Source of the DNA: Methanobacterium sp. BRmetb2
Lineage (GTDB): Archaea > Methanobacteriota > Methanobacteria > Methanobacteriales > Methanobacteriaceae
NCBI GenBank assembly: GCA_003491285.1
Contig: CP022705.1
Location: 1,095,647 to 1,127,646 of the forward strand
Length of the DNA: 32,000 nucleotides
Direction: 5' to 3'
Of this stretch, positions 2,857 through 26,695 are shown piece by piece. The position numbers and the translations under genes were made by a program. The notes beneath the pieces were generated by a model. That model saw only the letters and a program-made list of their open reading frames with translations. It was not told where the DNA came from and did no database searches. Numbering within the stretch: the first letter of the stretch is position 1; every line of letters begins with the position of its first letter.

Positions 2857-4320
2857 ATTAAGCGAGAGAAGAAATTTTTCGCGGCGTTAATAGCATGCAG
2901 CTTTTTGATGCTTTTTTCAATGGCTGGAGTTAATGCTGCAGAAAACGATTCTACATATACAAATATAACAAATGATAACATAATTCAAGAAGATCAGACG
3001 AATTCTACAATTAATGGCACTGAAGATCAGACAGATACTACTACATATCAAGCTAGTGCTGAGGATCCTACTGGTTTTGTAACTGTTGAAGAAGTTGAAA
3101 CAGCTGCAACTAACCTTAAAAATTATGTGGAAACACATAAAACTTTACCAGACACTATAGAAGTTGGATCAAAGACATTAACTATGGCCCAATTTTTAAA
3201 AGTTTTATTGACAACTACAATACATTTAGATCAAGGCATAATTGATTCAATAAACATTGACGCAGTGGATGATGCACCAAACCCTGCAGGTCAAAATATC
3301 TCAGACAACATTCTAAAATCAGGATACTTAGAAGATGCTATCAATATACTTAATTTCATGGATTCCTATGGAAGGGCACCAAACTATTGGAGTACTTCGA
3401 TTGGTAATCTACGGTTTGAAAATCTGGTACTTAGTTATGCTAATATCATGGATTTCAATGAGAATAATAATCGACTACCAAACTACACTAAGATTCGATC
3501 ATCCGATTTCAAATGGCCTGTGACTGTTGAAGAAATTGAAACAGCATCTATTTACCTTAAAAATTATGCGAACTCACATAAAGCTTTACCGGCGACTATT
3601 CAGGTTGGTTCCAACTCATTGACTATGTCTGAGTTTTTGAGGGTTTTAATGACAACCGTGATAAATTTAGATCAAAATGTATCTACACCAGTTGATATGG
3701 ATAATGTGAATAATGCGCCTAGTCCAGCAGGTGTGGTTATTTCAGGTAATATTCTAAAATCAGAGTATCTAAAAAATGCTACTACTATTCTAAATTTCAT
3801 AGATTCCAATGGAAGAGCACCAAATTATACGAATACTTCATTTGGTAATCTAAGGTTTGAATATATGGTGTATAATTTTGCTAAAATCATGGATTTCCAC
3901 AAAGATTACAATAGACTACCTAACTATACTATAGTCCAAACATCTGCAATGAGTTATGAATTAAAAGAAAATTATTCTTATTCAGTTTCAACTAGTGGTT
4001 TGAATGCAGTGGCCCGATATATAAATCAAAACTTCAATCACCGTTCTGGAGCTTCTACTACAGCAGCAGGTGTTTTAAAAACTGGTTATGGTGATTGTTG
4101 GGGATTAGCAGATTTGGCTGCCCAGGAGTTAAGTAAGAGTGGTTACAAAGTTCGTGTAGTTCAAGGTGCAAGCAGTGGTTCTTATAATCACCGTTGGGTG
4201 CAGTACTATGCTTATGGTAAATGGAATACTTTTGAATCTACAATGATTACCCAAAGATACGGTTCCAAACATTACTCATATGCCATAGCATCGGTAAGAA
4301 CAGTAATCAAATATTATTAA
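2857..4320 (+). CDS. Secreted paralog C: signal peptide, acidic sequon-rich linker, 2 x 147-aa pseudomurein-binding-repeat (PMBR)-like units, C-terminal minimal transglutaminase/Pei-like core
   Basis: The ORF track start (TTG at 2905) leaves only MMLFSMAGVNA, too short for a signal peptide. The frame is open back to the stop at 2842-2844. No ATG, GTG or TTG lies between them. ATT at 2857 follows GGAGG (2845-2849) by 7 nt and gives IKREKKFFAALIACSFLMLFSMAGVNA|AE. The C-terminal 121 aa are homologous to the C-termini of A and B (GYGDCWGLADLAAQEL, HRWVQY, FEST). Confidence 0.85.
   Translation: MKREKKFFAALIACSFLMLFSMAGVNAAENDSTYTNITNDNIIQEDQTNSTINGTEDQTDTTTYQASAEDPTGFVTVEEVETAATNLKNYVETHKTLPDTIEVGSKTLTMAQFLKVLLTTTIHLDQGIIDSINIDAVDDAPNPAGQNISDNILKSGYLEDAINILNFMDSYGRAPNYWSTSIGNLRFENLVLSYANIMDFNENNNRLPNYTKIRSSDFKWPVTVEEIETASIYLKNYANSHKALPATIQVGSNSLTMSEFLRVLMTTVINLDQNVSTPVDMDNVNNAPSPAGVVISGNILKSEYLKNATTILNFIDSNGRAPNYTNTSFGNLRFEYMVYNFAKIMDFHKDYNRLPNYTIVQTSAMSYELKENYSYSVSTSGLNAVARYINQNFNHRSGASTTAAGVLKTGYGDCWGLADLAAQELSKSGYKVRVVQGASSGSYNHRWVQYYAYGKWNTFESTMITQRYGSKHYSYAIASVRTVIKYY
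3076..3957 (+). repeat. 2 x 441-bp intragenic PMBR-like units in paralog C
   Basis: Units 3076-3516 and 3517-3957 both begin xVTVEE(V/I)ETA...LKNY and end ...NRLPNYT. Each holds three PMBR-like motifs: LKNYVExHxxLPxTIxVG, ILNFxDSxGRAPNY and IMDFxxxxNRLPNY. Confidence 0.85.
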
Positions 4321-4352
4321 GAGGAAATTTCCTCTTTTTATTTTTATTTTTT
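4321..4352 (+). terminator. Hairpin plus oligo-T terminator after paralog C
   Basis: The palindrome GAGGAAATTTCCTC (4321-4334) directly follows the stop codon. T5, T5 and T6 runs come next. Confidence 0.6.
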
Positions 4353-4399
4353 AAAGGCTTTTTAAATTCCTAGATAAAAATAAGGCTTATTTAATATTT

Positions 4400-4662
4400 A
4401 ATGTTTAGATGGTTGGTGAGTAGTCCATTAGTTCTTTTTTAAATTATATCTTAATTCGAAGAGTTTATATTTATTGATTGTAATATTCAAAGTCCTTATT
4501 TTCTAAAAATAATATTTTTATTGCGATTATTAAATTAAAAATAATATAATGATGAGGGTGGACCCTACCTTTTTTATGAAAGCTTATTAGAAGTTTTTAA
4601 AATGGAAAAATAATCTCAGAAAAAGTTTTTTTTCAGAAATTTAATGAAAAAAAAATTATATA
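4400..4662 (+). repeat. Conserved upstream non-coding module, copy 1 (before paralog D)
   Basis: It shares ordered blocks with the copies at 7668-7974, 10147-10484 and 12675-13014: gagtttatatttattgatt, cttattttctaaaaataat, a GC-richer island, ttatgaaa.cttattagaa.gttttaaa.gg.aaaata, an A-run/T-run palindrome, then the TATA box. Confidence 0.7.
4649..4662 (+). promoter_or_regulatory. Putative TATA box (TTATATA at 4656-4662) for paralog D
   Basis: Homologous position to the TTTATATA boxes of the other paralogs, about 90 bp upstream of ATG 4747. Confidence 0.4.
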
Positions 4663-4746
4663 AGATATATATTAATAATTCTATAGTCCGCAAACATATG
4701 TAAAATCATATATATACAAATAAAAATTGGTGATACTATTACGCGA

Positions 4747-6174
4747 ATGAAGTTTTTCGTGGCTTTATTAGCATGCAGCTTTTTGATGCTTTTTTCAATG
4801 GTTGGAGTTAATGCTGTTGAAAACAATACTACAGATGGAACTGTAATAAATGATATTAATGTATTGGAAGAGGAAAACAACCCTTTACAGTCCAGTGATA
4901 CAGATTCTACAAGTAGTGACACTGAAGATCAGACAGATACTACTACATATCAAGCTAGTGCTGAGGATCCTCCTATTAATTCTGTAAGTATTGAAGAGGT
5001 TGAAGCAGCTTCTGTTTTTCTTAGTGGTTATGTAGCATCACATAATACTTTGCCAGAGACTATTCAGGTTGGATCATATACATTGACTATGGCTCAGTTT
5101 TTAAAAGTTTTATTGTATACTACACTGCAGTTAGATCAGGGAAATCACAATCCCATAAAAATTAGCGCGGTAAATAATGCATCTAATCCATCTGATATTA
5201 ATGTTTCAGGCAACATTTTAAAATCAGAATATTTAAGAAATGCTATCAATATTCTTTATTTCATGAAGGACTATGGAAGGGCTCCGAACTATTGGCTCAC
5301 TTCCTTGGGCAATCTTAGATATGAAGCTATTGTACTAAGTTATGCTAAAATCATTGATTTCCATGAATATTATAATAGGTTACCTAACTATATTAAAATC
5401 AGCCGATACGATTTTAATAATTATAATAATGTTCATGGAATATGGATACAATCAGCAAGTGTGTACACCCTAGAGGTTAGTGAATTAATAAAAATGGACA
5501 TAACTGATGTGTTTGTTATATGTAAAAGAACAGGTTCTAATATATACTCCACCATCCTTCCTATATTACTCAATAAACTTCAAGGAACCAGTATAAGAGT
5601 TCATGCATGGATAATCTGTTTCCATGATGATAGTGGTTTTATTGATCCTTCCAATGAAACCTATCAACAAGATCTGATTAATTACATCTCATTACTAATG
5701 AATAACTATAATATTGACGGTGTACATTTAGATTATGTCAGATATCCTGGCGATGCTTATAACCATAATGGGACTGAAGTAATAACTAACTTCGTTGAAG
5801 ATGTCTACAACAGAGTTAAATCCATTAATAATGGACTCGCAGTTTCTGCGGCGTTAATGCCCGAAAAAGAGTCTAATGCATATTATTATGGGCAGGATTA
5901 TGGGCTATTAGCTCCTTATCTGGACTTTATGGTGCCAATGATTTACAAGTATGAGTACACCCCAACCACTGCGTGGATAGCTAGCACTACCCAGTATATT
6001 GTGGGTCAAGCAGGGGACACTCCAGTAATAGCAGGATTACAAACTTACAATGATGATTATGAACCAATTCTTCCTGCAGAATTAAGAAATGATATAAATG
6101 TAGCGGTGGCTAACGGTTCTTGTGGATTTGCATTATTTAGGTATGGATTAATCCACGAAGATTTCACATACTAA
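4747..6174 (+). CDS. Secreted paralog D: signal peptide, acidic linker, one PMBR-like unit (4981-5421), C-terminal TIM-barrel glycoside-hydrolase-like domain (GHL10 / DUF4015 type)
   Basis: ATG start gives MKFFVALLACSFLMLFSMVGVNA|VE. GGTGAT (4729-4734) also sits 3 nt before an in-frame ATT at 4738. The C-terminal 250 aa contain IRVHAWIICF...YNIDGVHLDYVRYPG...MVPMIYKY...GFALFRY, which resembles the (HL)DY(V/I)R(Y/F)P signature of the glycosyl-hydrolase-like families. Confidence 0.85.
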   Translation: MKFFVALLACSFLMLFSMVGVNAVENNTTDGTVINDINVLEEENNPLQSSDTDSTSSDTEDQTDTTTYQASAEDPPINSVSIEEVEAASVFLSGYVASHNTLPETIQVGSYTLTMAQFLKVLLYTTLQLDQGNHNPIKISAVNNASNPSDINVSGNILKSEYLRNAINILYFMKDYGRAPNYWLTSLGNLRYEAIVLSYAKIIDFHEYYNRLPNYIKISRYDFNNYNNVHGIWIQSASVYTLEVSELIKMDITDVFVICKRTGSNIYSTILPILLNKLQGTSIRVHAWIICFHDDSGFIDPSNETYQQDLINYISLLMNNYNIDGVHLDYVRYPGDAYNHNGTEVITNFVEDVYNRVKSINNGLAVSAALMPEKESNAYYYGQDYGLLAPYLDFMVPMIYKYEYTPTTAWIASTTQYIVGQAGDTPVIAGLQTYNDDYEPILPAELRNDINVAVANGSCGFALFRYGLIHEDFTY

Positions 6175-8057: not shown

Positions 8058-10076
8058 TTGGGTGGTATCATCACACGAAAGAAATTTTTTTTAGCTTTAT
8101 TAGCATGTAGCTTTTTAATGCTTTTTTCTATGACTGATGTTAATGCTGCAGAAAGCGATTCTGTAGAGGATGGAAATGTTACTGTACTTCCAGAAGATAA
8201 TTCTGTACAGTCCAGCGGATTAGAGTCTACTGAGGATGCGGAAGAAGAGACTGATACAAATACGTATCAAATTAGTGCTGATTATATTGGTTTTGTGACG
8301 GTTGAAGAGGTTGAAACAGCTTCTAATTACCTTAATTATTATGTAGAGACATATAACTGTTTACCAGAGACTATTACAGTTGGATCCTATGATTTGACTA
8401 TGTCTCAATTTTTAAAGATTTTATTGGATACTAGTATTCAGTTAGATCAGGAAGATTATATTACTCCAATACCATTCACTGACATGGGTGATGCACCTAA
8501 TCCAGCAGGACAATCCATTTCAGGATACATTCTTAAATCAGAATATATCCTGAATGCTGCTGCTATTCTTAATTTCATGGAGGGTTACGGAAGATCACCG
8601 AATTATTGGCGTACTTCTTTAGGTAATCTAAGGTTTGAGGGTCTTGTGCTTAGTTATGCTAATATAATCGATTTCTATAGGGAATATAATGAGCTGCCTA
8701 GCAACACTTTTATTATTCCATGTGATTTTATGGGGTTAGTGACTGTTGATGAAGTTGAAGCGGCTTCTGTTTATCTTAAAAATTACGTGGAGACAAATAA
8801 CCATTTTCCAGAGACTATCCCTGTTGGAGCAAAATCTTTAACCATTGCTCAGTTTTTCAAGGTTTTATTAACTGCAGTTGTTCAGATTGATCAGGAAGAT
8901 TATACTACTCTAATATATGTTACTGATTTGGGCGATGTGCCTAATTCAGCCGGGCATGTTATTTTGGGCAACATTTTAAAATCGGATTATATTTCAAACG
9001 CCGGGCAACTTCTTAGTTTTATGGAGTCATATGGGAGAGCACCGAATTATTGGCGTACTTCTTTAGGTAATCTATGTTTTGAGGGTCTTGTGCTTAGTTA
9101 TGCCAATATCATGGATTTCCAGGAATCTAATGGCAGATTACCCAACTATACAGTTGTCAATTTTTCAGGGGCTGCGACTTTTGACAATGTTAAAGAGGCG
9201 TCTCTATATCTTAAGAAATATGTAACGGCTCTTAAACTTTTACCGTGGAGTATTAAGGTTGGTTCTTATACTTTGACATTGTCTGAATTTTTGAAAGTTT
9301 TATTGATATCAGTGATAAATTCAGATCAAAATCTATTTACTTCGGTGGTTATCACTGATGTGGATAATCCTCCTAAGCCAGCAGGCCAAAATATTTCAGG
9401 TACCATTTTAAAATCAGAGTATATCCAAAATGCTAATGCTATTCTCAATTTCATTGATTCCAATGGGAGAGCACCGAATTATGGAATTACTTCGTTGGGT
9501 GATTTAAGATTTGATTACATTGTGTTTGGTTATGCTAAGATCATGGATTTCCACAAAGATTATAATAGACTCCCTAATTACACTGTTGTAAAAAATTCTG
9601 ACTTTAATTTCAGTACAATTAACGCAATTTACTATTCAGCTCAGCTTAGACCAACAAACAATTGTCAGTCCACAAGTTCAACCATAATAAATTTTGCTAA
9701 AAACTTAACTAAAAACTGTTTTACCACCTACGATAAGGCTTTAGCCATATTTGAATGGGTAAGAGATTATTGTGATTATACATTCTATTACAATACCAAA
9801 TATGGTGCAGTTGGAATGTTGTACCGTAAGGATGGTAATTGTATAGATCATTCACATTTAATCAATGCTTTAGCTCGTTCTGTGGGTATACCTGCTAGAT
9901 ATGCTCATGCAAAGTGTAAATTCACTAATATGACCGTGGGACACATATGGTCAGAATTATATATCCGGGGGAGATGGGTTACTGCTGATGCAACGAGCTT
10001 AAGAAATGATTTAGGGACACAATTGAATTGTAAAATATTGTATTGGAAAGGAAGATACACCCAACTACCTTTCTGA
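8058..10076 (+). CDS. Secreted paralog E: signal peptide, linker, 3 PMBR-like units, C-terminal transglutaminase-like (Pei-type Cys-His-Asp) domain
   Basis: The ORF track start is TTG at 8058. The codon homologous to the family ATT is ATC at 8070, 3 nt after GGTGGT (8061-8066). The C-terminus reads FEWVRDYCDYTFY...DGNCIDHSHLINALARSVGIPARY...GHIWSELY...RWVTADAT, a classical transglutaminase core with Cys, His and Asp. Confidence 0.9.
   Translation: MGGIITRKKFFLALLACSFLMLFSMTDVNAAESDSVEDGNVTVLPEDNSVQSSGLESTEDAEEETDTNTYQISADYIGFVTVEEVETASNYLNYYVETYNCLPETITVGSYDLTMSQFLKILLDTSIQLDQEDYITPIPFTDMGDAPNPAGQSISGYILKSEYILNAAAILNFMEGYGRSPNYWRTSLGNLRFEGLVLSYANIIDFYREYNELPSNTFIIPCDFMGLVTVDEVEAASVYLKNYVETNNHFPETIPVGAKSLTIAQFFKVLLTAVVQIDQEDYTTLIYVTDLGDVPNSAGHVILGNILKSDYISNAGQLLSFMESYGRAPNYWRTSLGNLCFEGLVLSYANIMDFQESNGRLPNYTVVNFSGAATFDNVKEASLYLKKYVTALKLLPWSIKVGSYTLTLSEFLKVLLISVINSDQNLFTSVVITDVDNPPKPAGQNISGTILKSEYIQNANAILNFIDSNGRAPNYGITSLGDLRFDYIVFGYAKIMDFHKDYNRLPNYTVVKNSDFNFSTINAIYYSAQLRPTNNCQSTSSTIINFAKNLTKNCFTTYDKALAIFEWVRDYCDYTFYYNTKYGAVGMLYRKDGNCIDHSHLINALARSVGIPARYAHAKCKFTNMTVGHIWSELYIRGRWVTADATSLRNDLGTQLNCKILYWKGRYTQLPF
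8292..9611 (+). repeat. 3 intragenic PMBR-like units in paralog E (444, 435 and 441 bp)
   Basis: Units start at 8292 (FVTVEEVETAS), 8736 (LVTVDEVEAAS) and 9171 (AATFDNVKEAS). Each ends with N(E/R)LP(S/N)(N/Y)T. Confidence 0.85.
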
Positions 10077-10558: not shown

Positions 10559-12598
10559 ATTAAGCGAAAGAAGAAATTTTTCGTGGCCATGTTAGCGTGC
10601 AGCTTTTTGATGCTTTTTTCAATGGCTGGTGTTAATGCTGCAGAAGATGATTCTTCAGATGGGATTATAATAAATGATACCAATGTAACTCAAGAAGATA
10701 ATCCTTTACAGTCCGATGATAACGATTCTACAGATAATGGCACAGAAGATACGGGAGATCAGACAGATACTATTACATATCAAACTAGTGCTGAGGGTTC
10801 TTCTGGTTCTGTGACGGTTGAAGAAGTTGAAACGGCTGCTAGCGAACTTAAGAATTATGTGGAGATACATAACAGTTTACCAGACACTATTCAGGTCGGT
10901 TCATATACTTTGACCATGGCTCAGTTTTTAAATGTCTTATTAAATACTACACTACAATTAGATCAGGAAATATATGATCGAATAACAATTAATACGGTGG
11001 ATGATGCACCTAACCCTTCTGGTAACGTTAATTCGGGTAATATTTTAAAATCAGAATATTTAGAAAACGCTGTCAGTATCCTTAATTTTATGGATACTCA
11101 TGGAAGGGCACCAAACTATGGGAGTACTTCTTTAGGTAATCTAAGATTTGAAGGCCTTGTATTTAGTTTTGCTAAAATCATAGATTTTTACAAAGATTTT
11201 GATAGGCTACCTAACTACGCAGTTATTATCCAATCCGGTTTCATGGGTTCTGTGACGGTTGAAGAAGTTGAAGCAGCTGCTAGCGAACTTAAGAATTATG
11301 TGGAGATACATAACAGTTTACCAGACACTATTCAGGTCGGTTCAAAGTATTTGACCATGGCTCAGTTTTTAAGTGTCTTATTAAATACTACGCTACAATT
11401 AGATCAGGGAAATTATTCTCCGATAAAGATTATTGCAATGGGCGATGCACCTAATCCAACAGGTGAAATTGTTTCAGGTAACATTCTAAAATCAGAGTAT
11501 TTACTAAATGCTACAAATATTCTTAATTTCATGGATTCCTATGGAAGGGCACCAAACTATTGCAATATTACCTTAGGTAATTCTAGATTTGAATATATGG
11601 TGTTGAGTTTTGCTAAAATCATAGATTTCTACAAAGAGAATGATAGGCTACCAAACTATACTAAAATTCTTCCAACGGATTCTATAGGATCAGTGACTTT
11701 TGAAGAGATTGAAGAAGCAGCAGTTTATCTTAAAGAGTATATAACAGCACTTAAATTTTTACCAAAGACTATTCAAGTTGGTTCCTATACTTTGACCATG
11801 TCAGAATTTTTAAAAATTTTATTGACAACAGTAATAAATTCAGATCAAAATATATTTACACCAGTAAATGTCACAGATGTGAATAATTCGCCAAATCCTG
11901 CAGGTCAGAAAATTTCGGCCAACATTCTAAAATCAGAATATATGCAAAATGCTATTGATATTCTTAATTTTATGGATACTTATGGAAGGGCACCAAACTA
12001 TTGGAAAACTTCATTAGGTAATCTCAGGTTTGAATATGTAGTATTTAGTTTTGCTAAAATCATAGATTTTCAAAAAGAGTACAATAGACTACCTAACTAC
12101 GCGCTCATACATACATCTGACATACTTTTCAATGTAATTGACGCACCGGGCAATTTACTACAGTATCTTATGCCAACAGATAATTGTCAGTCATTAAGTT
12201 CAACCATAATAAATTTTGCTAAAAATTTAACTAAAAACTGTTATACTGACTATGATAAGGCTAAAGTCATATTTGAATGGGTAAGAGACTATTGTAGCTA
12301 TACGTTCTATTACAATACCAAATATGGTGCAGTAGAAATGTTAAACCGTAAGGATGGTAATTGTATAGATCATTCACATTTAATCAATGCTTTAGCTCGT
12401 TCTGTGGGTATACCTGCTAGATATGCTCATGCACAGTGTAAATTCACCAGCATGACAGTGGGACATATTTGGTCTGAACTATACGTAAATGGAAGATGGG
12501 TCACTGCTGATGCGACAAGCACAAGAAACAATTTAGGAACACAAGTGAACTGTTCAATATTATATTGGAAAGGAAGATACGCAGAACTACCTTTCTAA
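10559..12598 (+). CDS. Secreted paralog F: signal peptide, linker, 3 x 147-aa PMBR-like units, C-terminal transglutaminase-like (Pei-type) domain
   Basis: The ORF track gives 10583 (GTG), extended in frame to ATT at 10559 within ...GGAGGCGGTATA ATT AAG CGA AAG AAG AAA TTT TTC. The C-terminal domain (12131-12598) is colinear with 9612-10076 of paralog E, including an 88-bp identical block. Confidence 0.9.
   Translation: MKRKKKFFVAMLACSFLMLFSMAGVNAAEDDSSDGIIINDTNVTQEDNPLQSDDNDSTDNGTEDTGDQTDTITYQTSAEGSSGSVTVEEVETAASELKNYVEIHNSLPDTIQVGSYTLTMAQFLNVLLNTTLQLDQEIYDRITINTVDDAPNPSGNVNSGNILKSEYLENAVSILNFMDTHGRAPNYGSTSLGNLRFEGLVFSFAKIIDFYKDFDRLPNYAVIIQSGFMGSVTVEEVEAAASELKNYVEIHNSLPDTIQVGSKYLTMAQFLSVLLNTTLQLDQGNYSPIKIIAMGDAPNPTGEIVSGNILKSEYLLNATNILNFMDSYGRAPNYCNITLGNSRFEYMVLSFAKIIDFYKENDRLPNYTKILPTDSIGSVTFEEIEEAAVYLKEYITALKFLPKTIQVGSYTLTMSEFLKILLTTVINSDQNIFTPVNVTDVNNSPNPAGQKISANILKSEYMQNAIDILNFMDTYGRAPNYWKTSLGNLRFEYVVFSFAKIIDFQKEYNRLPNYALIHTSDILFNVIDAPGNLLQYLMPTDNCQSLSSTIINFAKNLTKNCYTDYDKAKVIFEWVRDYCSYTFYYNTKYGAVEMLNRKDGNCIDHSHLINALARSVGIPARYAHAQCKFTSMTVGHIWSELYVNGRWVTADATSTRNNLGTQVNCSILYWKGRYAELPF
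10808..12130 (+). repeat. 3 x 441-bp intragenic PMBR-like units in paralog F
   Basis: Units start at 10808, 11249 and 11690 (SVTVEEVE / SVTVEEVE / SVTFEEIE). The first 160 bp of units 1 and 2 differ at only about 8 positions. Confidence 0.9.
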
Positions 12599-13123: not shown

Positions 13124-14563
13124 ATTAAGCGAGAGAAATTTTTCGTGGTGTTAATAGCGTGCAGCTTTTTGATGCTTTTTTCAATGGCTGGTGTTAATGC
13201 TGCAGAAGATGATTCTTCAGATGGGACTATAATAAATGATACCAATGTAACTCAAGAAGATAATCCTTTACAGTCCGATGATAACGATTCTACAGATAAT
13301 GGCACAGAAGATACGGGAGATCAGACAGATACTATTACATATCAAACTAGTGCTGAGGGTTCTTCTGGTTCTGTGACGGTTGAAGAAGTTGAAACGGCTG
13401 CTAGCGAACTTAAGAATTATGTGGAGATACATAACAGTTTACCAGACACTATTCAGGTCGGTTCATATACTTTGACCATGTCAGAATTTTTAAAGATTTT
13501 ATTGATGACTGTCATAAATTTAGATCAAAATGTGTCTACGCCAGTGGCTGTCACGGAGGTGGGTGATGCACCTAATCCTGCAGGTCAAAATATTTCGGGT
13601 AATCTTCTAAAATCAGAGTATCTGCAAAATGCTATTGGTATTCTTAATTTTATTGATTCCAATGGAAGGGCACCAAATTATTTTAGGACGTCTTTGGGTA
13701 ATCTACGGTTTGAATATATAGTATTTAGTTATACTAAAATCATGGATTTCTATGGAGATTATGATAGGCTCCCTAACTATACTAAAATTTGTTTATCTGA
13801 TTTTATGCAGTCTTTAACAGTTGATGAGATTGAAACAGCTTCTAATTGTCTTAAAAATTATGTACAGGCAAATAAAATTCTACCAGACACTATTCAGGTC
13901 GGTTCAAAGTGTTTAACCATGTCAGAATTTTTAAATGTTTTATTGATGGCAGTGATTAATTCAGATAGAAATGTGTCTATGCCCGTGGCTGTCACGGAGG
14001 TGGGTGATGCACCTAATCCTGCAGGTCAAAATATTTCAGGTAACATTCAAAAATCAGAATATGTAAGAAAGGCAACCAATATTCTAAATTTCATGAATTC
14101 CAATGATAGAGCACCAAACTATTCTACCACATCTTTAGGTAATCTAAGGTACGAATATATAGTGTTCAATTTTGCAAAGATCATGGACTTCCATAAATAC
14201 TACAATAGACTGCCTAACTATACCGTAGTCCAAACATCTGCCATGAGTTATCAAATGATGGAAATTTCTTCTAAATACGGTGCTAAAAACGTTATTGTGA
14301 CAGATAGTTATGTTCAATGCTCTGGAAGATGTACTTGTAGCTTGTATCAAGATTACGATTATCATACAGTTAAATTTGTTAACTACTGTCCTTATTGCCA
14401 TAAAAATTCTACACTGGACTATGAAGAAGGAAATACAATTTATGATAACCCTGAAGGAATGTGGGTGTGCAGTATGAGTAAAGGTGGCTGTGATGCAGAT
14501 TTCTGCTTAGTGCATGGTAAAGCCCATGTGACTAGTGGTGCTAAATATTTAACCTCTGCATAA
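13124..14563 (+). CDS. Secreted paralog G: signal peptide, linker, 2 x 147-aa PMBR-like units, C-terminal Cys-rich zinc-ribbon-like domain of unknown function
   Basis: The ORF track gives 13145 (GTG), extended to ATT at 13124 after GGAGG (13112-13116) plus 7 nt. The C-terminal ~100 aa read CSGRCTC...YCPYCH...WVCSMSKGGCDADFCLVHGKAH (8 Cys and several His arranged in CxxxCxC, CxxC and Cx6Cx4CxxH groups). Confidence 0.85.
   Translation: MKREKFFVVLIACSFLMLFSMAGVNAAEDDSSDGTIINDTNVTQEDNPLQSDDNDSTDNGTEDTGDQTDTITYQTSAEGSSGSVTVEEVETAASELKNYVEIHNSLPDTIQVGSYTLTMSEFLKILLMTVINLDQNVSTPVAVTEVGDAPNPAGQNISGNLLKSEYLQNAIGILNFIDSNGRAPNYFRTSLGNLRFEYIVFSYTKIMDFYGDYDRLPNYTKICLSDFMQSLTVDEIETASNCLKNYVQANKILPDTIQVGSKCLTMSEFLNVLLMAVINSDRNVSMPVAVTEVGDAPNPAGQNISGNIQKSEYVRKATNILNFMNSNDRAPNYSTTSLGNLRYEYIVFNFAKIMDFHKYYNRLPNYTVVQTSAMSYQMMEISSKYGAKNVIVTDSYVQCSGRCTCSLYQDYDYHTVKFVNYCPYCHKNSTLDYEEGNTIYDNPEGMWVCSMSKGGCDADFCLVHGKAHVTSGAKYLTSA
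13370..14251 (+). repeat. 2 x 441-bp intragenic PMBR-like units in paralog G
   Basis: Units 13370-13810 and 13811-14251. The second ends with LPNYTVVQTSAMSY, the same junction as in paralog C. Confidence 0.85.
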
Positions 14564-18707: not shown

Positions 18708-19853
18708 ATGAAAATCAGAAATATTGACATTTTTTCTCCTTACATCATGATTTTTGGTATACTGCTTTACCTGGCCCTGGCAGTTGTAGCTTTCAATTAT
18801 AATATTAATGGTTTAGAACCATCATCAAGTTTAACTTATTACACGGTATTTTATGGTGTAACTCTGTTTTTGGTGGGTATTTTTTTTGCAATTTATATTC
18901 AGAGGTACTTGAAAATAAAAAAATCTTCTTTGAGTTTTATAAAATTTTCTAAAAAGTTAAAACCACATATATCATTCGAAAAAATAATTTTAAGCTTGAT
19001 TATAATGGGGATATTATTACAAATAGTTAACATTTATCTGGTAGGAGGTATACCCCTTTTTAGTGGTTATCTCAAAGCTAAAGCCATAACTAAAATTTGG
19101 TTTGTGTCATATTTGATATTTCTACCGTCCATTAACATATTGTTGGCTAAATTTAATAGGAAATGGTATTATCTCCTTTTTGCTGTTGGTTTACTTTTAT
19201 TTGCCATTACTGGTTATCGAACTACTACCATGGCCATAATATTCAGTGTTTTTATCACCAGTTATTATGTGTTGAATCTAAAATTTAAATACATACTAAT
19301 TTTCGCCATGTTAATGTTAATAATAGGTGTATCAGTAGGTTATATTGCAGTAAAAGCAATTGAATGGCAGCAGTGGAACTTAAACCCCTTTGAATTATTT
19401 TTCTACCGTGCAGGCTACACACTGAATGTCTTGGATAGGGTTGTGGAAATGGTGGGAGCAACTAAAGGTTCCCTATTCTATTATACACTCACGGGATTTT
19501 TTGAATCTATGGATCCTAGGATTATTATTGGAGAAACTGTTTTAAAATATCGAGTATCTACTACATCTACTATATTTGGCCCAGCTTTACTGGATTTTGG
19601 CTATCTGGGCTTAGGGGTGCAGATGTTTTTGCTGGGAATTTATTTAAAATTGTTACACACACTTCAAAAAATGAAAAAAGGAATATACACGGCATTTTAT
19701 GCCATAATATTGGCTCATTCACTTATATGGATAGAAACTGGGCCTACTGATTTGGTAGTGTGGGCTTTCTTTGTAATTGGCCTACTTTTGATACTATTAA
19801 ATTATACTTTAGATTCAAAATCCGAAGTGAAAACTGAAAATGGTGCTCTTTGA
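18708..19853 (+). CDS. Polytopic integral membrane protein (about 10 TM; Wzy/oligosaccharide-polymerase-like topology, family unassigned)
   Basis: Hydrophobic segments run throughout. AGGTG RBS precedes the start. Its stop codon overlaps the next start (TGATG). Confidence 0.6.
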   Translation: MKIRNIDIFSPYIMIFGILLYLALAVVAFNYNINGLEPSSSLTYYTVFYGVTLFLVGIFFAIYIQRYLKIKKSSLSFIKFSKKLKPHISFEKIILSLIIMGILLQIVNIYLVGGIPLFSGYLKAKAITKIWFVSYLIFLPSINILLAKFNRKWYYLLFAVGLLLFAITGYRTTTMAIIFSVFITSYYVLNLKFKYILIFAMLMLIIGVSVGYIAVKAIEWQQWNLNPFELFFYRAGYTLNVLDRVVEMVGATKGSLFYYTLTGFFESMDPRIIIGETVLKYRVSTTSTIFGPALLDFGYLGLGVQMFLLGIYLKLLHTLQKMKKGIYTAFYAIILAHSLIWIETGPTDLVVWAFFVIGLLLILLNYTLDSKSEVKTENGAL

Positions 19854-20923
19854 TGAAAATTGCAATAGCTGCTGAAATTGCCCCTGCTAAAACTTTTATT
19901 CCGATATTAGAAAAATTAGACGCAGAAGTAATTGGTTTAACTCATGGTGATGGGGCAAGCGAATTATTAGAAGAATTTTGTTCTAGTATATACAGTATTG
20001 GGCAGGGCCGGGGAAAGGAAGCACAAAAACGATCAAATTTTAAAATTGCTTGGTTGGTTTTAAAGGATATTTTTAAAGCAGTTGGTTCATTACGAGGTCA
20101 TGATATTGATCTTTTACTTACCTGTGGAAATGCAGGTGATGTGAGAAAAGGAATTGCTGCCGCCAAAATACTGGGAATTCCCAACCTGCATATTGAACAG
20201 GATATCTATAATCCTATAGAAATGATAGCATATTCTAATCTGGTAACAGTTCCATCAAAACAATATAAAAATCTGGTGGAAGAGAGATATGGCCTAGTGA
20301 ATGTACGAGTAATTGGTGGATATCCCCAAGCTTCATATATAAAAAAAACTGCATTGCACAATGTTGAACAGATTAAAAATATGTATAATGCGGATGATTT
20401 CCTGTTGATGGTGCTGGGAGGAGATGTTAAAAGTGAAGATTTGCCTGAAATTATTAAAACACTTGAAAATCTCCATGAAAATATTTTAATAGCCCCATAT
20501 CGTTTTGATAAAGATCATGTACTAAATCTAGTCAAATCACCCCAATTGAAAGTTTTAGATGGTTTTGTGGATCTTTTACCTATTATGAATGCCTCCTCTG
20601 GCATGATATATGGGGCGGGTATGGGCCTAACTATTGAGGCTGGAGCAATGGAAATTCCTTCTATAAAATTGGCAGGATTTCACAGTCAACATGCCAGTAT
20701 GGATCTGGCATATAAATTAGGCATACCTGTTGTAGTTGTAGAAGATATTCCAGATGCACTTGAAAACCTTAAAAAACCAAGAGGTCAATGGTTAATTGAT
20801 AATGGAGAAAAAGCAGTATCAAATGTAGTGGAACTGATTAATAACTTTGATAATGAAAAATCCAGAAGCAGTGGTTTTTCAAGTATGAGAAAAATATGGA
20901 AAGAAAGATCAAAATTTAGATAG
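19853..20923 (+). CDS. GT-B fold glycosyltransferase-like protein (MurG/DUF354-like)
   Basis: The C-terminal IYGAGMGLTIEAGAMEIPSI resembles the MurG/GT28 C-terminal nucleotide-sugar-binding motif. The N-terminus MKIAIAAEIAPAKTFIPILEKL is Rossmann-like. ATG at 19853 overlaps the upstream stop. The ORF track uses TTG at 19850. Confidence 0.5.
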   Translation: MKIAIAAEIAPAKTFIPILEKLDAEVIGLTHGDGASELLEEFCSSIYSIGQGRGKEAQKRSNFKIAWLVLKDIFKAVGSLRGHDIDLLLTCGNAGDVRKGIAAAKILGIPNLHIEQDIYNPIEMIAYSNLVTVPSKQYKNLVEERYGLVNVRVIGGYPQASYIKKTALHNVEQIKNMYNADDFLLMVLGGDVKSEDLPEIIKTLENLHENILIAPYRFDKDHVLNLVKSPQLKVLDGFVDLLPIMNASSGMIYGAGMGLTIEAGAMEIPSIKLAGFHSQHASMDLAYKLGIPVVVVEDIPDALENLKKPRGQWLIDNGEKAVSNVVELINNFDNEKSRSSGFSSMRKIWKERSKFR

Positions 20924-25147: not shown

Positions 25148-26695
25148 TTATAGACCAAACCTTTCTATAAATCTAATCAATTTTTCCAATATTCCTGTCA
25201 ATGGACCTAATTTTTTAGAAACTTTTCTAAGCATTCTCAAATCTCTGGCTTCAAATCCTTTTAAAAATGTGAGAGATAGTAAATAAACTATTGGAGCTAT
25301 AATAATTGCCGCAACAAATCCTTCATAATTTTTAGGAAGCAATATTAATGGTAAACTCATTATAATTGTTGATACTAAAATTTTAGCAAAATCAAGATAA
25401 GGAGGAGTTACTTGAGTTTTTTGGAATGTTTGCCATAATATACCAACCATAATGACAAATGCCGCAATAGTGGTTGCCAGTGCTGCCCCAACAATTCCAT
25501 ACAAAGGAACCAATAAAAGGTTAAGTCCAAGGTTAATGGCTGTACCAATGAGGAGAATCATCATCGGTAATCTTGGATATCCTATTCCTTGAGATATACT
25601 TGCCGAAACCATGAATAATGTGTAGAAAGTCATACCAATAACCAGTATACTCAGTGCTTCTGCGCCCGGGACAAATTCAGAACCAAATAGTATTCCCATT
25701 AGGGGTGTTGCGAATATGGCTATACCTATACATAAAGGCAAAACCAGGAGTATAACGTAACGATATGATTGGACAATGTAATTTTTTAATAGGCCCTTAT
25801 CTTTAAGGGCGGCTGCTTCTGAAGCTGCCGGAAGTACTGCTGTTGCAACCGATAATGAAATAACCAGGGGTAATCTGGCGATAGGATCGGCAGCAGTATA
25901 GTACCCCACGTATTTGGTGGCCATGTAAGATCCAATAACAAATGTACTTATATCATATATGGCCATTTCAGAAAGAGCAGTTATAATAACTGGAATAGAA
26001 AATGCTAAAAGAGTTTTAATAAGTTTCAACTCATCCCAGAATCCCAACTTTTTTTCAGGCTCAGGTTCTGGTAAGTATTTCCAGAGAAACTTCCTAAATA
26101 TGAGAAATGCTGCTGCTGCTGACGCAATAAATCCTATAGCAGTTCCCATAACAGCTCCTGCAGCATAAAAGCCTATAGAAACCAAAACAACAGCCATAGT
26201 TATCATGAAAACTTGTTCCACAGCACGGGTAGCTACAATATATTCCATTTTATAGAATCCCTGAAAAGCTCCTCTAAATGCCCCTACAATCACGCTGAAA
26301 GGAGTAATAAGGGCCACGGCTTGTAAAGGGTACGTTGCTAAGGGTTTGTGGAATACGCTGTTGGCAATCCAATCCGCAGAAAAAAACATTACCAGGCTAA
26401 AAAAGATTCCTAAAATAACCATAAACTTTAGGGACGTGAAAATCACTTGTCTTACTTGATCATAGTCATCAAGGGCTTTATATTGGGATACATATTTTGC
26501 AATAGCTGGAGGCAGTCCTCCGGCAGATAATATCTGGAAGATGCCTTGAAAAGGTATGGTGAGTCCTAAAAGACCATAACCTTCCGGTCCTAGCAATCGG
26601 CTCATTAAAAACCTGTAGAAGTAACCGCCTACTCTGAAAAGAATGTAGCTTATCATCATCATGAAGCTACCTCTTACTAATTTTTCACTTCCCAT
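25148..26695 (-). CDS. MOP-superfamily polysaccharide/lipid-linked-oligosaccharide flippase (Wzx/MurJ-like)
   Basis: 515 aa with about 14 TM helices. The N-terminus SFMMMISYILFRVGGYFYRFLMSRLLGPEGYGLLG is typical of polysaccharide biosynthesis (flippase) proteins. Confidence 0.8.
   Translation of the reverse strand: MGSEKLVRGSFMMMISYILFRVGGYFYRFLMSRLLGPEGYGLLGLTIPFQGIFQILSAGGLPPAIAKYVSQYKALDDYDQVRQVIFTSLKFMVILGIFFSLVMFFSADWIANSVFHKPLATYPLQAVALITPFSVIVGAFRGAFQGFYKMEYIVATRAVEQVFMITMAVVLVSIGFYAAGAVMGTAIGFIASAAAAFLIFRKFLWKYLPEPEPEKKLGFWDELKLIKTLLAFSIPVIITALSEMAIYDISTFVIGSYMATKYVGYYTAADPIARLPLVISLSVATAVLPAASEAAALKDKGLLKNYIVQSYRYVILLVLPLCIGIAIFATPLMGILFGSEFVPGAEALSILVIGMTFYTLFMVSASISQGIGYPRLPMMILLIGTAINLGLNLLLVPLYGIVGAALATTIAAFVIMVGILWQTFQKTQVTPPYLDFAKILVSTIIMSLPLILLPKNYEGFVAAIIIAPIVYLLSLTFLKGFEARDLRMLRKVSKKLGPLTGILEKLIRFIERFGL

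Follow-up and report, generated by a model that had tools for sequence, protein, structure and literature searches.

We analysed a 32,000-nt stretch of the genome of Methanobacterium sp. BRmetb2 (contig CP022705.1, positions 1,095,647 to 1,127,646; hereafter the window), focusing on an open reading frame (ORF) on its forward strand, at window positions 4747 to 6174, that starts with ATG and encodes a protein of 475 aa. We lean towards the view that this protein is a secreted enzyme, anchored by a pseudomurein-binding repeat (PMBR) module, that cleaves the glycan strand of pseudomurein for wall remodelling or autolysis, probably as an endo-beta-N-acetylhexosaminidase. The coordinates of the ORF and the sequence strings on which the original prediction was based (IRVHAWI, IDGVHLDYVRYPG, PMIYKY and GFALFRY, all within the ORF) were exactly as described there. 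Homologues number in the hundreds, the best being 99% identical over the shared parts, so the ORF is not a chance one; a search of NCBIfam with the 475-aa protein gave no match. Three proteins encoded nearby had exact matches that assign the window to Methanobacterium sp. BRmetb2. A putative ribosome-binding site, GGTGAT (4729 to 4734, forward strand), can be read 12 nt upstream of the ATG, and the gene probably has its own promoter, since the intergenic spacer on its 5' side is AT-rich and 426 nt long. An antisense ORF of 88 aa (4656 to 4922, reverse strand) lies over the 5' end of the gene; it is unsupported and probably spurious.

The first 23 residues (4747 to 4815, forward strand) resemble a signal peptide in a Kyte-Doolittle profile, with MK followed by a hydrophobic run and then by VNA and VEN; the segment reads MKFFVALLACSFLMLFSMVGVNA followed by VEN. 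The AlphaFold2 (AF2) model of this region has a helix at residues 2-14 and is disordered thereafter. The hydrophobic region is near-identical in five paralogs, and the N-terminal segment as a whole is almost letter-identical in the paralogs that begin at 2905, 8058, 10583 and 13145, consistent with the family signal peptide that had been proposed. Residues 24-78 (4816 to 4980, forward strand) form an acidic linker rich in Asp, Thr, Ser and Asn, with no predicted secondary structure and a predicted local distance difference test score (pLDDT) of 26-49. The linker leads into one 147-aa unit of PMBR, a 33-residue repeat, at residues 79-225 (4981 to 5421, forward strand). Pfam matched PMBR (PF09373) with 31.8 bits against a gathering score of 24.9; the match falls into two stretches, of which that at residues 188-218 scores highest. 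The unit can be read as four motifs, each made up of a helix and a loop; the loops read HNTLPETIQV, NHNPIKISAV, YGRAPNYWLT and YNRLPNYIKI, and the AF2 helices are at residues 82-99, 115-130, 159-176 and 192-209, modelled with moderate to low confidence. When the two halves of the unit were aligned to each other, the score (30) was not above those of shuffled controls (23 +/- 5, maximum 45); the four-motif reading thus rests on the Pfam matches and the predicted helices. At least three PMBR motifs have been reported to be required for binding to pseudomurein sacculi (PMC3210951). The unit contains four motif-like elements, two of them weak, and its binding to sacculi is a prediction. A metagenomic allele (P0001, at L081 367-2235; 622 aa, 19 member sequences) carries one additional 147-aa PMBR unit, inserted after residue 107, and differs by only 4 nucleotides outside this extra unit. 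The description of positions 4981 to 5421 as a single wall-binding unit is therefore exact, with the length of the unit defined by this indel, and it follows that either near-identical strains differ in how many PMBR units they have or the repeat was collapsed in one of the assemblies.

The remainder of the protein, residues 226-475 (5422 to 6171, forward strand), is a (beta/alpha)8 barrel of the DUF4015 type, as judged from AF2, Foldseek and a family profile. The AF2 model of these 250 aa, built from a 69-sequence alignment, has eight strand-helix pairs, a pLDDT of 96.4 and a predicted template modelling (TM) score of 0.93. The top Foldseek matches were PgaB's C-terminal domain (GH153) and Cwp19, with TM-scores of 0.74-0.78, followed by GH164 and GH18 proteins; nearly all of the top 50 matches in the PDB are carbohydrate-active enzymes, mostly glycoside hydrolases, and the fold matches in BFVD were generic TIM-barrel glycosidases only. 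Searched against PDB sequences, the single protein found Cwp19 at E 5e-4, and also YaaH, and the family profile found Cwp19 at E 4.5e-19 across the entire barrel, 4s1a (QFDYIRFP) at E 1.2e-13 and then GH18 proteins, with YaaH at 3e-8. The profile match to Cwp19 makes superfamily-level homology to GHL10 clear. The expectation of a glycoside-hydrolase-like TIM barrel in the neighbourhood of GHL10, DUF4015 and GH18 was thus borne out by Pfam, AF2, Foldseek and the family profile, and structure prediction and profile searches agreed on a hydrolase-type barrel, with no non-hydrolase fold turning up. This fold assignment is not new, because relatives are already annotated in databases as "putative glycoside hydrolase" or "GH18 family protein".

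Family membership within this neighbourhood was less straightforward. The Pfam model for GH18 (Glyco_hydro_18, PF00704) scored 34.8 bits against a gathering score of 29.6, covering residues 293-404 only. DUF4015 (PF13200) scored 24.3 bits in the 475-aa protein, against a gathering score of 27, with its signature D-Y-[IV]-R-[YF]-P present; viral, bacterial and most archaeal relatives pass the PF13200 threshold or are precomputed as PF13200. GHL10 (PF02638) scored 11.7 bits, under its gathering score of 27.9, and the protein has H-L-D-Y-V instead of H-F-D-D-Y. We rejected GH18 membership: the catalytic motif DxxDxDxE is not found at D324-G-V-H327-L-D329-Y-V331, and Val occupies the position of the GH18 Glu throughout the barrel family. 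Given this, and given a Tyr at the position of Cwp19 Asp196, we file the barrel as a DUF4015-type sister of GHL10, neither GH18 nor GHL10. The signature [HQ]-[LF]-D-Y-[IV]-R-[YF]-P is common to the barrel and to DUF4015 proteins, including the uncharacterised structure 4s1a. In the literature searched, DUF4015 appeared in one unrelated paper, on a domain fusion, that assigned no activity to it.

The beta-4 motif of the barrel, D324-G-V-H327-L-D329-Y330-V-R332-Y333-P-G335 (5716 to 5751, forward strand), aligns with DGVHFDDYFYPG of Cwp19 and with the DxxDxDxE region of GH18, D329 aligning with the Asp that precedes the acid in both. Beta-5 and a loop comprise S367-A-A-L-M-P-E373 (5845 to 5865, forward strand), in which E373 is a candidate general acid, and beta-6 comprises P397-M-I-Y400-K-Y (5935 to 5952, forward strand), in which Y400 aligns with Tyr297 of Cwp19. 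GH18 proteins also have a Tyr at the position of Y400 (PMTYE in YaaH, MTYD in 4wiw), such that the beta-4 Asp and beta-6 Tyr of GH18 enzymes, including the spore-cortex enzymes YaaH and SleL and chitinases, both align with the barrel, whereas the catalytic Glu of their DxxDxDxE motif corresponds to Val331. Among the 69 sequences, W288, G325, D329, Y330, Y333, Q383, M398, G460 and F464 are invariant, H286, H327, R332, S367, Y381, D384, Y400, W410 and Y434 are conserved in at least 90%, G335 is near-invariant (at least 90%), and D324 is unconserved (19 of 69). E373 is Glu in 58 of the 69 and Asp in 4, and it is kept in 13 of 14 members of a wider archaeal, viral and bacterial set. In this wider set, which includes four viral and two bacterial proteins, H327, D329, Y330, R332, Y333, S367, Y400 and Y434 are invariant. 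Positions conserved in at least 90% of sequences are enriched at the C-terminal ends of strands (16 of 56, vs 14 of 194 elsewhere; Fisher p = 7e-5), a pattern typical of the active sites of TIM barrels. By alignment, the barrel shows no canonical pair of the catalytic Asp/Glu type that the original prediction had suggested looking for; its candidate carboxylates are the invariant D329 and the near-invariant E373, which might work as a pair or with one of them acting alongside a substrate acetamido group.

The barrel-containing proteins of known function that resemble it most are Cwp19 and PgaB. Cwp19 of C. difficile (GHL10; PDB 5oq2 and 5oq3) has been shown experimentally to be a peptidoglycan lytic transglycosylase and an autolysin (PMC6016235). 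Like the 475-aa protein, it is secreted and joins a wall-binding repeat module to a (beta/alpha)8 barrel (Foldseek TM-score 0.75). The two barrels have in common HAW on beta-3, G-x-H-x-D...Y-P on beta-4, Ser on beta-5, Tyr on beta-6, a Gly on beta-7 in place of the clan GH-A nucleophile, and Phe on beta-8. They differ in that identity is 14%, the barrel of the 475-aa protein is smaller by about 100 residues, D-D-Y-F of Cwp19 corresponds to D-Y-V-R, the proposed catalytic Asp196 of Cwp19 corresponds to Tyr330, and Arg132 and Gln77 of Cwp19 are not conserved; the wall-binding module is CWB2 in Cwp19 and PMBR in the 475-aa protein. PgaB's C-terminal domain (GH153) is the best structural match (E 3e-12, TM-score 0.74-0.78), at about 13% identity and with no significant sequence match. 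PgaB hydrolyses partly deacetylated poly-N-acetylglucosamine (PNAG), and a single Asp on beta-4 has been identified in it, with no canonical partner residue; it is a periplasmic, exopolysaccharide-processing enzyme that acts on a beta-1,6 substrate. E. coli DigH/YddW, a GHL10 lipoprotein, is a divisome glycosidase that acts on denuded peptidoglycan strands and hence has a murein substrate; it has a barrel of the same GHL10-type superfamily and, like the activity proposed for the 475-aa protein, cuts wall glycan, and some relatives of the barrel have been named "lipoprotein YddW" by JGI.

These comparisons bear on whether the barrel is an enzyme at all. It might instead be a non-catalytic, glycan-binding pseudo-enzyme that adds wall affinity, in the manner of chitinase-like lectins: the equivalents of the GH18 Glu and of Cwp19 Asp196 are missing, and PgaB's C-terminal domain was itself long regarded as a binding domain only. 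We think this quite improbable, as invariant polar residues, among them D329 and the near-invariant E373, are densely placed on the catalytic face across the family, both of the nearest characterised relatives are active without a canonical pair, and a second binding module would be superfluous in proteins that already carry PMBR.

In archaea, the barrel is most often part of a larger protein. The family is small: among 1.84 billion cluster representatives, it has 177 members at E <= 1e-30 and 1220 at E <= 1e-3, and its named members come from Methanobacterium, Methanothermobacter, Methanobacteriaceae and Methanobrevibacter. In 112 of the 223 relatives that we retrieved, the barrel is followed by at least 120 aa, typically PMBR plus Transglut_core; it is C-terminal in 15, including the near-identical allele and Methanothermobacter proteins, and the remainder are short, stand-alone barrels. 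The syntenic gene of a Methanobacteriaceae metagenome-assembled genome (MAG), upstream of the same radical-SAM/HhH gene (L004 5710-8037), encodes a 775-aa protein with barrel, PMBR and Transglut_core and a weak match to Peptidase_C71 (Pei), the domain order being the reverse of that in the 475-aa protein. It had been proposed that the barrel replaces a peptidase-type C-terminus. This is right for the 475-aa protein, in which Pfam found no Pei-type cysteine-peptidase domain (Peptidase_C71, Transglut_core or C39) although the neighbouring paralogs have Transglut_core, but it does not extend to the family, most of whose members fuse the barrel to PMBR and a transglutaminase-like domain. Many of these three-domain relatives (P0004, P0005 and P0104, for example) have an insertion of about 60-110 residues in the barrel, after domain position ~80, that splits the phmmer match; the 475-aa protein lacks it. 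In two Methanobrevibacter genomes (L008 3420-8469 and L011 2331-6768), a PGA_cap (CapA-like) gene is followed by two tandem genes whose products combine Ig-like domains with a DUF4015 barrel and lack PMBR.

The recurrence of transglutaminase domains raises the possibility that the barrel builds the wall rather than degrading it. As a transglycosylase, it would cut and re-ligate the strand, or join the nascent strand into the sacculus, alongside exported cross-linking transglutaminase domains, and would be the functional analogue of bifunctional penicillin-binding proteins or of fungal beta-1,3-glucanosyltransferases. Retaining enzymes that use acetamido assistance often transglycosylate, and fusion is the dominant architecture of the family. 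Moreover, the exported transglutaminase-domain proteins to which the barrel is fused are the leading candidates at present for the cross-linking of pseudomurein (PMC11915815), and the fused proteins may, for this reason, combine glycan cutting with either peptide cutting or cross-linking. A wall-building role nonetheless seems improbable to us: we saw no donor-binding or lipid-linked-substrate feature in the protein, and the viral copies beside a lytic C39 peptidase and the catabolic-looking bacterial loci described below fit degradation.

Homologues are also encoded by viruses. A scan of IMG/VR identified four contigs with homologues of the barrel (37-39% identity), in proteins of 321-358 aa that consist of PMBR and barrel and lack signal peptides. 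The four contigs encode terminase, portal, MuF and protease, and their portals are 62% identical to those of psiM2/psiM100 and 39% identical to that of Drs3, so these contigs belong to tailed viruses of Methanobacteriales. The Pei enzymes and the viral barrels occur in the same virus groups, and in one Drs3-related contig (L085) a PMBR+barrel gene (1820-2785) directly follows, and overlaps the end of, a PeiR-like gene for PMBR plus Peptidase_C39 (768-1829); the pair is possibly a two-enzyme pseudomurein lysis cassette, just upstream of the terminase and packaging genes. In a psiM2-like contig (L082), the PMBR+barrel gene (3708-4712) is tightly packed between the portal and MuF-like genes, a position at which psiM2 has no gene, and its placement suggests an entry enzyme that is packaged in the virion to penetrate the wall. 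The two other viral genes are at L083 7650-8726 and L084 200-1174. In the viral proteins, matches to PHROGs were confined to the PMBR part, and no PHROGs family corresponded to the barrel; in the GenBank phage collection there was no close homologue of the barrel, with psiM2, psiM100, Drs3 and MSTV1 all lacking it.

The closest bacterial homologues of the barrel are in Bacteroidota loci. One, in a Paludibacter MAG (L007 2151-11325), encodes a lipoprotein with PMBR-like motifs and C39 that aligns to the viral PMBR+C39 protein (E 7e-9), together with Ig-like proteins, an LTD+DUF4015 protein whose barrel is 33% identical to that of the 475-aa protein (E 3e-42), a GH20 and a GHL10. The second, in a Bacteroidales MAG (L012 35-12565), encodes a GH20, a MurQ-like SIS protein, two DUF4015 proteins, a BACON protein, Peptidase_C1, Transglut_core and an MFS transporter. 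From their gene content, both loci appear to serve the catabolism of a wall polymer made of glycan and peptide, which may be murein or pseudomurein, and the PMBR-like motifs of the Paludibacter locus hint at pseudomurein rather than murein. The Por_Secre_tail and BACON domains speak for a truly bacterial origin of both contigs. A Lentisphaerae locus (L009) had no informative neighbours.

Homology to murein-active GHL10 proteins and to GH18 chitinases could also mean that the enzyme is aimed at other organisms, cutting the murein of bacteria, or chitin, either as a weapon or to obtain nutrients, and archaeal peptidoglycan hydrolases that kill bacteria have been documented. We see a very slim chance of this, as PMBR directs a protein to walls of the kind that its producer itself has, the barrel is also encoded by viruses that infect the same hosts, and a 2025 survey that looked for peptidoglycan hydrolases in archaea counted just two homologues in the pseudomurein-synthesising classes Methanobacteria and Methanopyri.

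Pseudomurein has been known since the 1970s. The enzymes shown to degrade it so far, PeiW, PeiP and PeiR, all cut peptide: they are cysteine peptidases of the C71 or C39 type that attack the peptide cross-link. They resemble the 475-aa protein in joining a PMBR targeting module to a catalytic domain, and differ from it in that it has no peptidase domain. A 2011 review stated that no enzyme was known to cut the glycosidic bond of pseudomurein, reviews from 2024 and 2025 name the Pei enzymes alone as pseudomurein-lytic, and a September 2026 study that tried a PMBR+C39-like protein on aryl glycosides indicated that the backbone is probably not its target. The literature searched, whose scope did not extend to a 2023 methanogen-virus compendium, reports no pseudomurein glycan-cutting enzyme, and the original statement that no such enzyme has been characterised therefore stands. 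As far as we have searched, the link between this barrel and the pseudomurein backbone, backed by viral and bacterial contexts, is new.

We propose that a Sec-type signal peptide exports the 475-aa protein, which the flexible acidic linker and the PMBR unit would hold on pseudomurein. [quoted passage not shown] The chemistry would be the acetamido-assisted catalysis of GH18 and GHL10, most likely that of an endo-beta-N-acetylhexosaminidase: D329 on beta-4 and Y400 on beta-6 may position the 2-acetamido group of the -1 sugar, and E373, or D329 itself, may protonate the leaving group. We infer the activity, its substrate, the bond cut and these residue roles. Talosaminuronic acid has no C6 hydroxyl, so that a 1,6-anhydro product is impossible on it; by this chemical reasoning, a lytic transglycosylase reaction like that of Cwp19 is possible only with GlcNAc or GalNAc as the -1 sugar. 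A lyase mechanism by beta-elimination was considered and rejected, also on chemical grounds, as the uronic acid of pseudomurein is 3-linked, not 4-linked.

The predicted domains are those of a modular wall lysin, with export or viral delivery, a wall-binding repeat and an enzymatic-type domain. Architecture, fusions and genomic context uphold the view of the 475-aa protein as a strong candidate for the missing backbone-cutting activity; the candidacy is strengthened by the transglutaminase- and Pei-like fusions, by the methanogen-virus homologues, one of them beside a PeiR-like gene, and by the Bacteroidota loci with C39, transglutaminase-like and GH20 genes.

Several observations weigh against this interpretation. 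PgaB, which the barrel matches best in fold, has an exopolysaccharide as its substrate; many relatives of the barrel occur in bacteria that have no pseudomurein, so that the fold is not specific to this polymer; and the Methanobrevibacter homologues bear Ig-like domains in place of PMBR. The 475-aa protein itself has a single PMBR unit, the second half of which is poorly modelled, and it departs from the family consensus at five conserved positions of the barrel (G251D, W298F, G402Y, N403E and S436D). The positions of the GH18 catalytic Glu and of Cwp19 Asp196 are taken by Val331 and Tyr330, these correspondences coming from sequence and profile alignments rather than from superposition, and D384 is Cys in two viral proteins. 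Some of the same observations are accommodated by an alternative in which PMBR just tethers the protein to the cell surface and the glycan that the barrel hydrolyses is a different one associated with the wall, for example a polymer resembling PNAG, an exopolysaccharide, a capsule or another envelope heteropolysaccharide. The top fold match is a PNAG hydrolase, the window contains O-antigen-polymerase-family, GT28-like and Polysacc_synt/MurJ-type flippase genes, the Ig-like homologues of Methanobrevibacter are encoded beside PGA_cap, and there are relatives in bacteria that lack pseudomurein. We regard this alternative as unlikely: in archaea, viruses and bacteria alike, the barrel is repeatedly fused or adjacent to peptide-active domains of the Pei or transglutaminase type, the viral copies are in lysis or head-module positions, not among tail fibres, and the closest characterised relative by sequence acts on peptidoglycan.

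We favour cleavage of the pseudomurein glycan strand, and it would have several implications. A glycan cutter would fill a gap in our picture of how these methanogens grow, divide and autolyse, would explain how their viruses pass through the wall, and would provide a first function for DUF4015. It would also offer a second, possibly synergistic lytic tool for DNA and protein extraction, for genetics and for the mitigation of ruminant methane. More tentatively, and with rather more doubt than we attach to the single protein, PMBR-linked DUF4015-type barrels in general might be the missing pseudomurein glycan cutter, used by three parties. Methanobacteriales cells would use them for wall growth and autolysis, often fused to a cross-linking or Pei-like transglutaminase domain; their tailed viruses would use them, beside Pei peptidases, to enter or lyse cells; and Bacteroidota would use them in loci that also encode PMBR-like C39 peptidases and GH20, which would make these loci the first pseudomurein-degrading systems from bacteria. 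If confirmed, the bacterial loci would suggest that some bacteria use methanogen walls as food.

Three paralogs of the 475-aa protein in the window pair PMBR with a transglutaminase domain. The forward-strand gene at 2905 to 4320 encodes a paralog that shares the N-terminus of the 475-aa protein and has two PMBR units plus Transglut_core. Two further forward-strand paralogs with PMBR and Transglut_core are encoded at 8058 to 10076 and 10583 to 12598, and a fourth, at 13145 to 14563 on the same strand, has PMBR only, with no Pfam domain in its C-terminal part. Given the current standing of exported transglutaminase-domain proteins as cross-linking candidates (PMC11915815), the C-terminal domain of these paralogs may have a wall-cross-linking function instead of a peptidase one. 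The ORFs at 126-830 and 1453-2097 encode short paralogs with a hydrophobic N-terminus, striking Tyr/Lys repeats (YKKYYKKYYKKYY...) and sub-threshold matches to Transglut_core (20.9 and 22.6 bits, respectively, vs 23). A conserved stretch, GGGIIKR/GGIITRKKFF, encoded by GGAGGCGGTATAATTAAG, follows an in-frame stop at about 2860-2905 and is also found 5' of 126, 1453 and 8058. From its letters, GGAGGCGGTATAATTAAG looks like a ribosome-binding site and possibly a non-canonical start, and the mechanically listed starts of those paralogs are uncertain as a result; the gene at 4747 to 6174, unlike them, has a plain ATG. Further along the window, genes for envelope glycan synthesis lie at 18708-20923 and 25148-26695, and encode an O_anti_polymase-family protein (E 6.5e-102), a protein with a weak match to the N-terminal domain of GT28 (MurG-like), and a Polysacc_synt/MurJ-type flippase.

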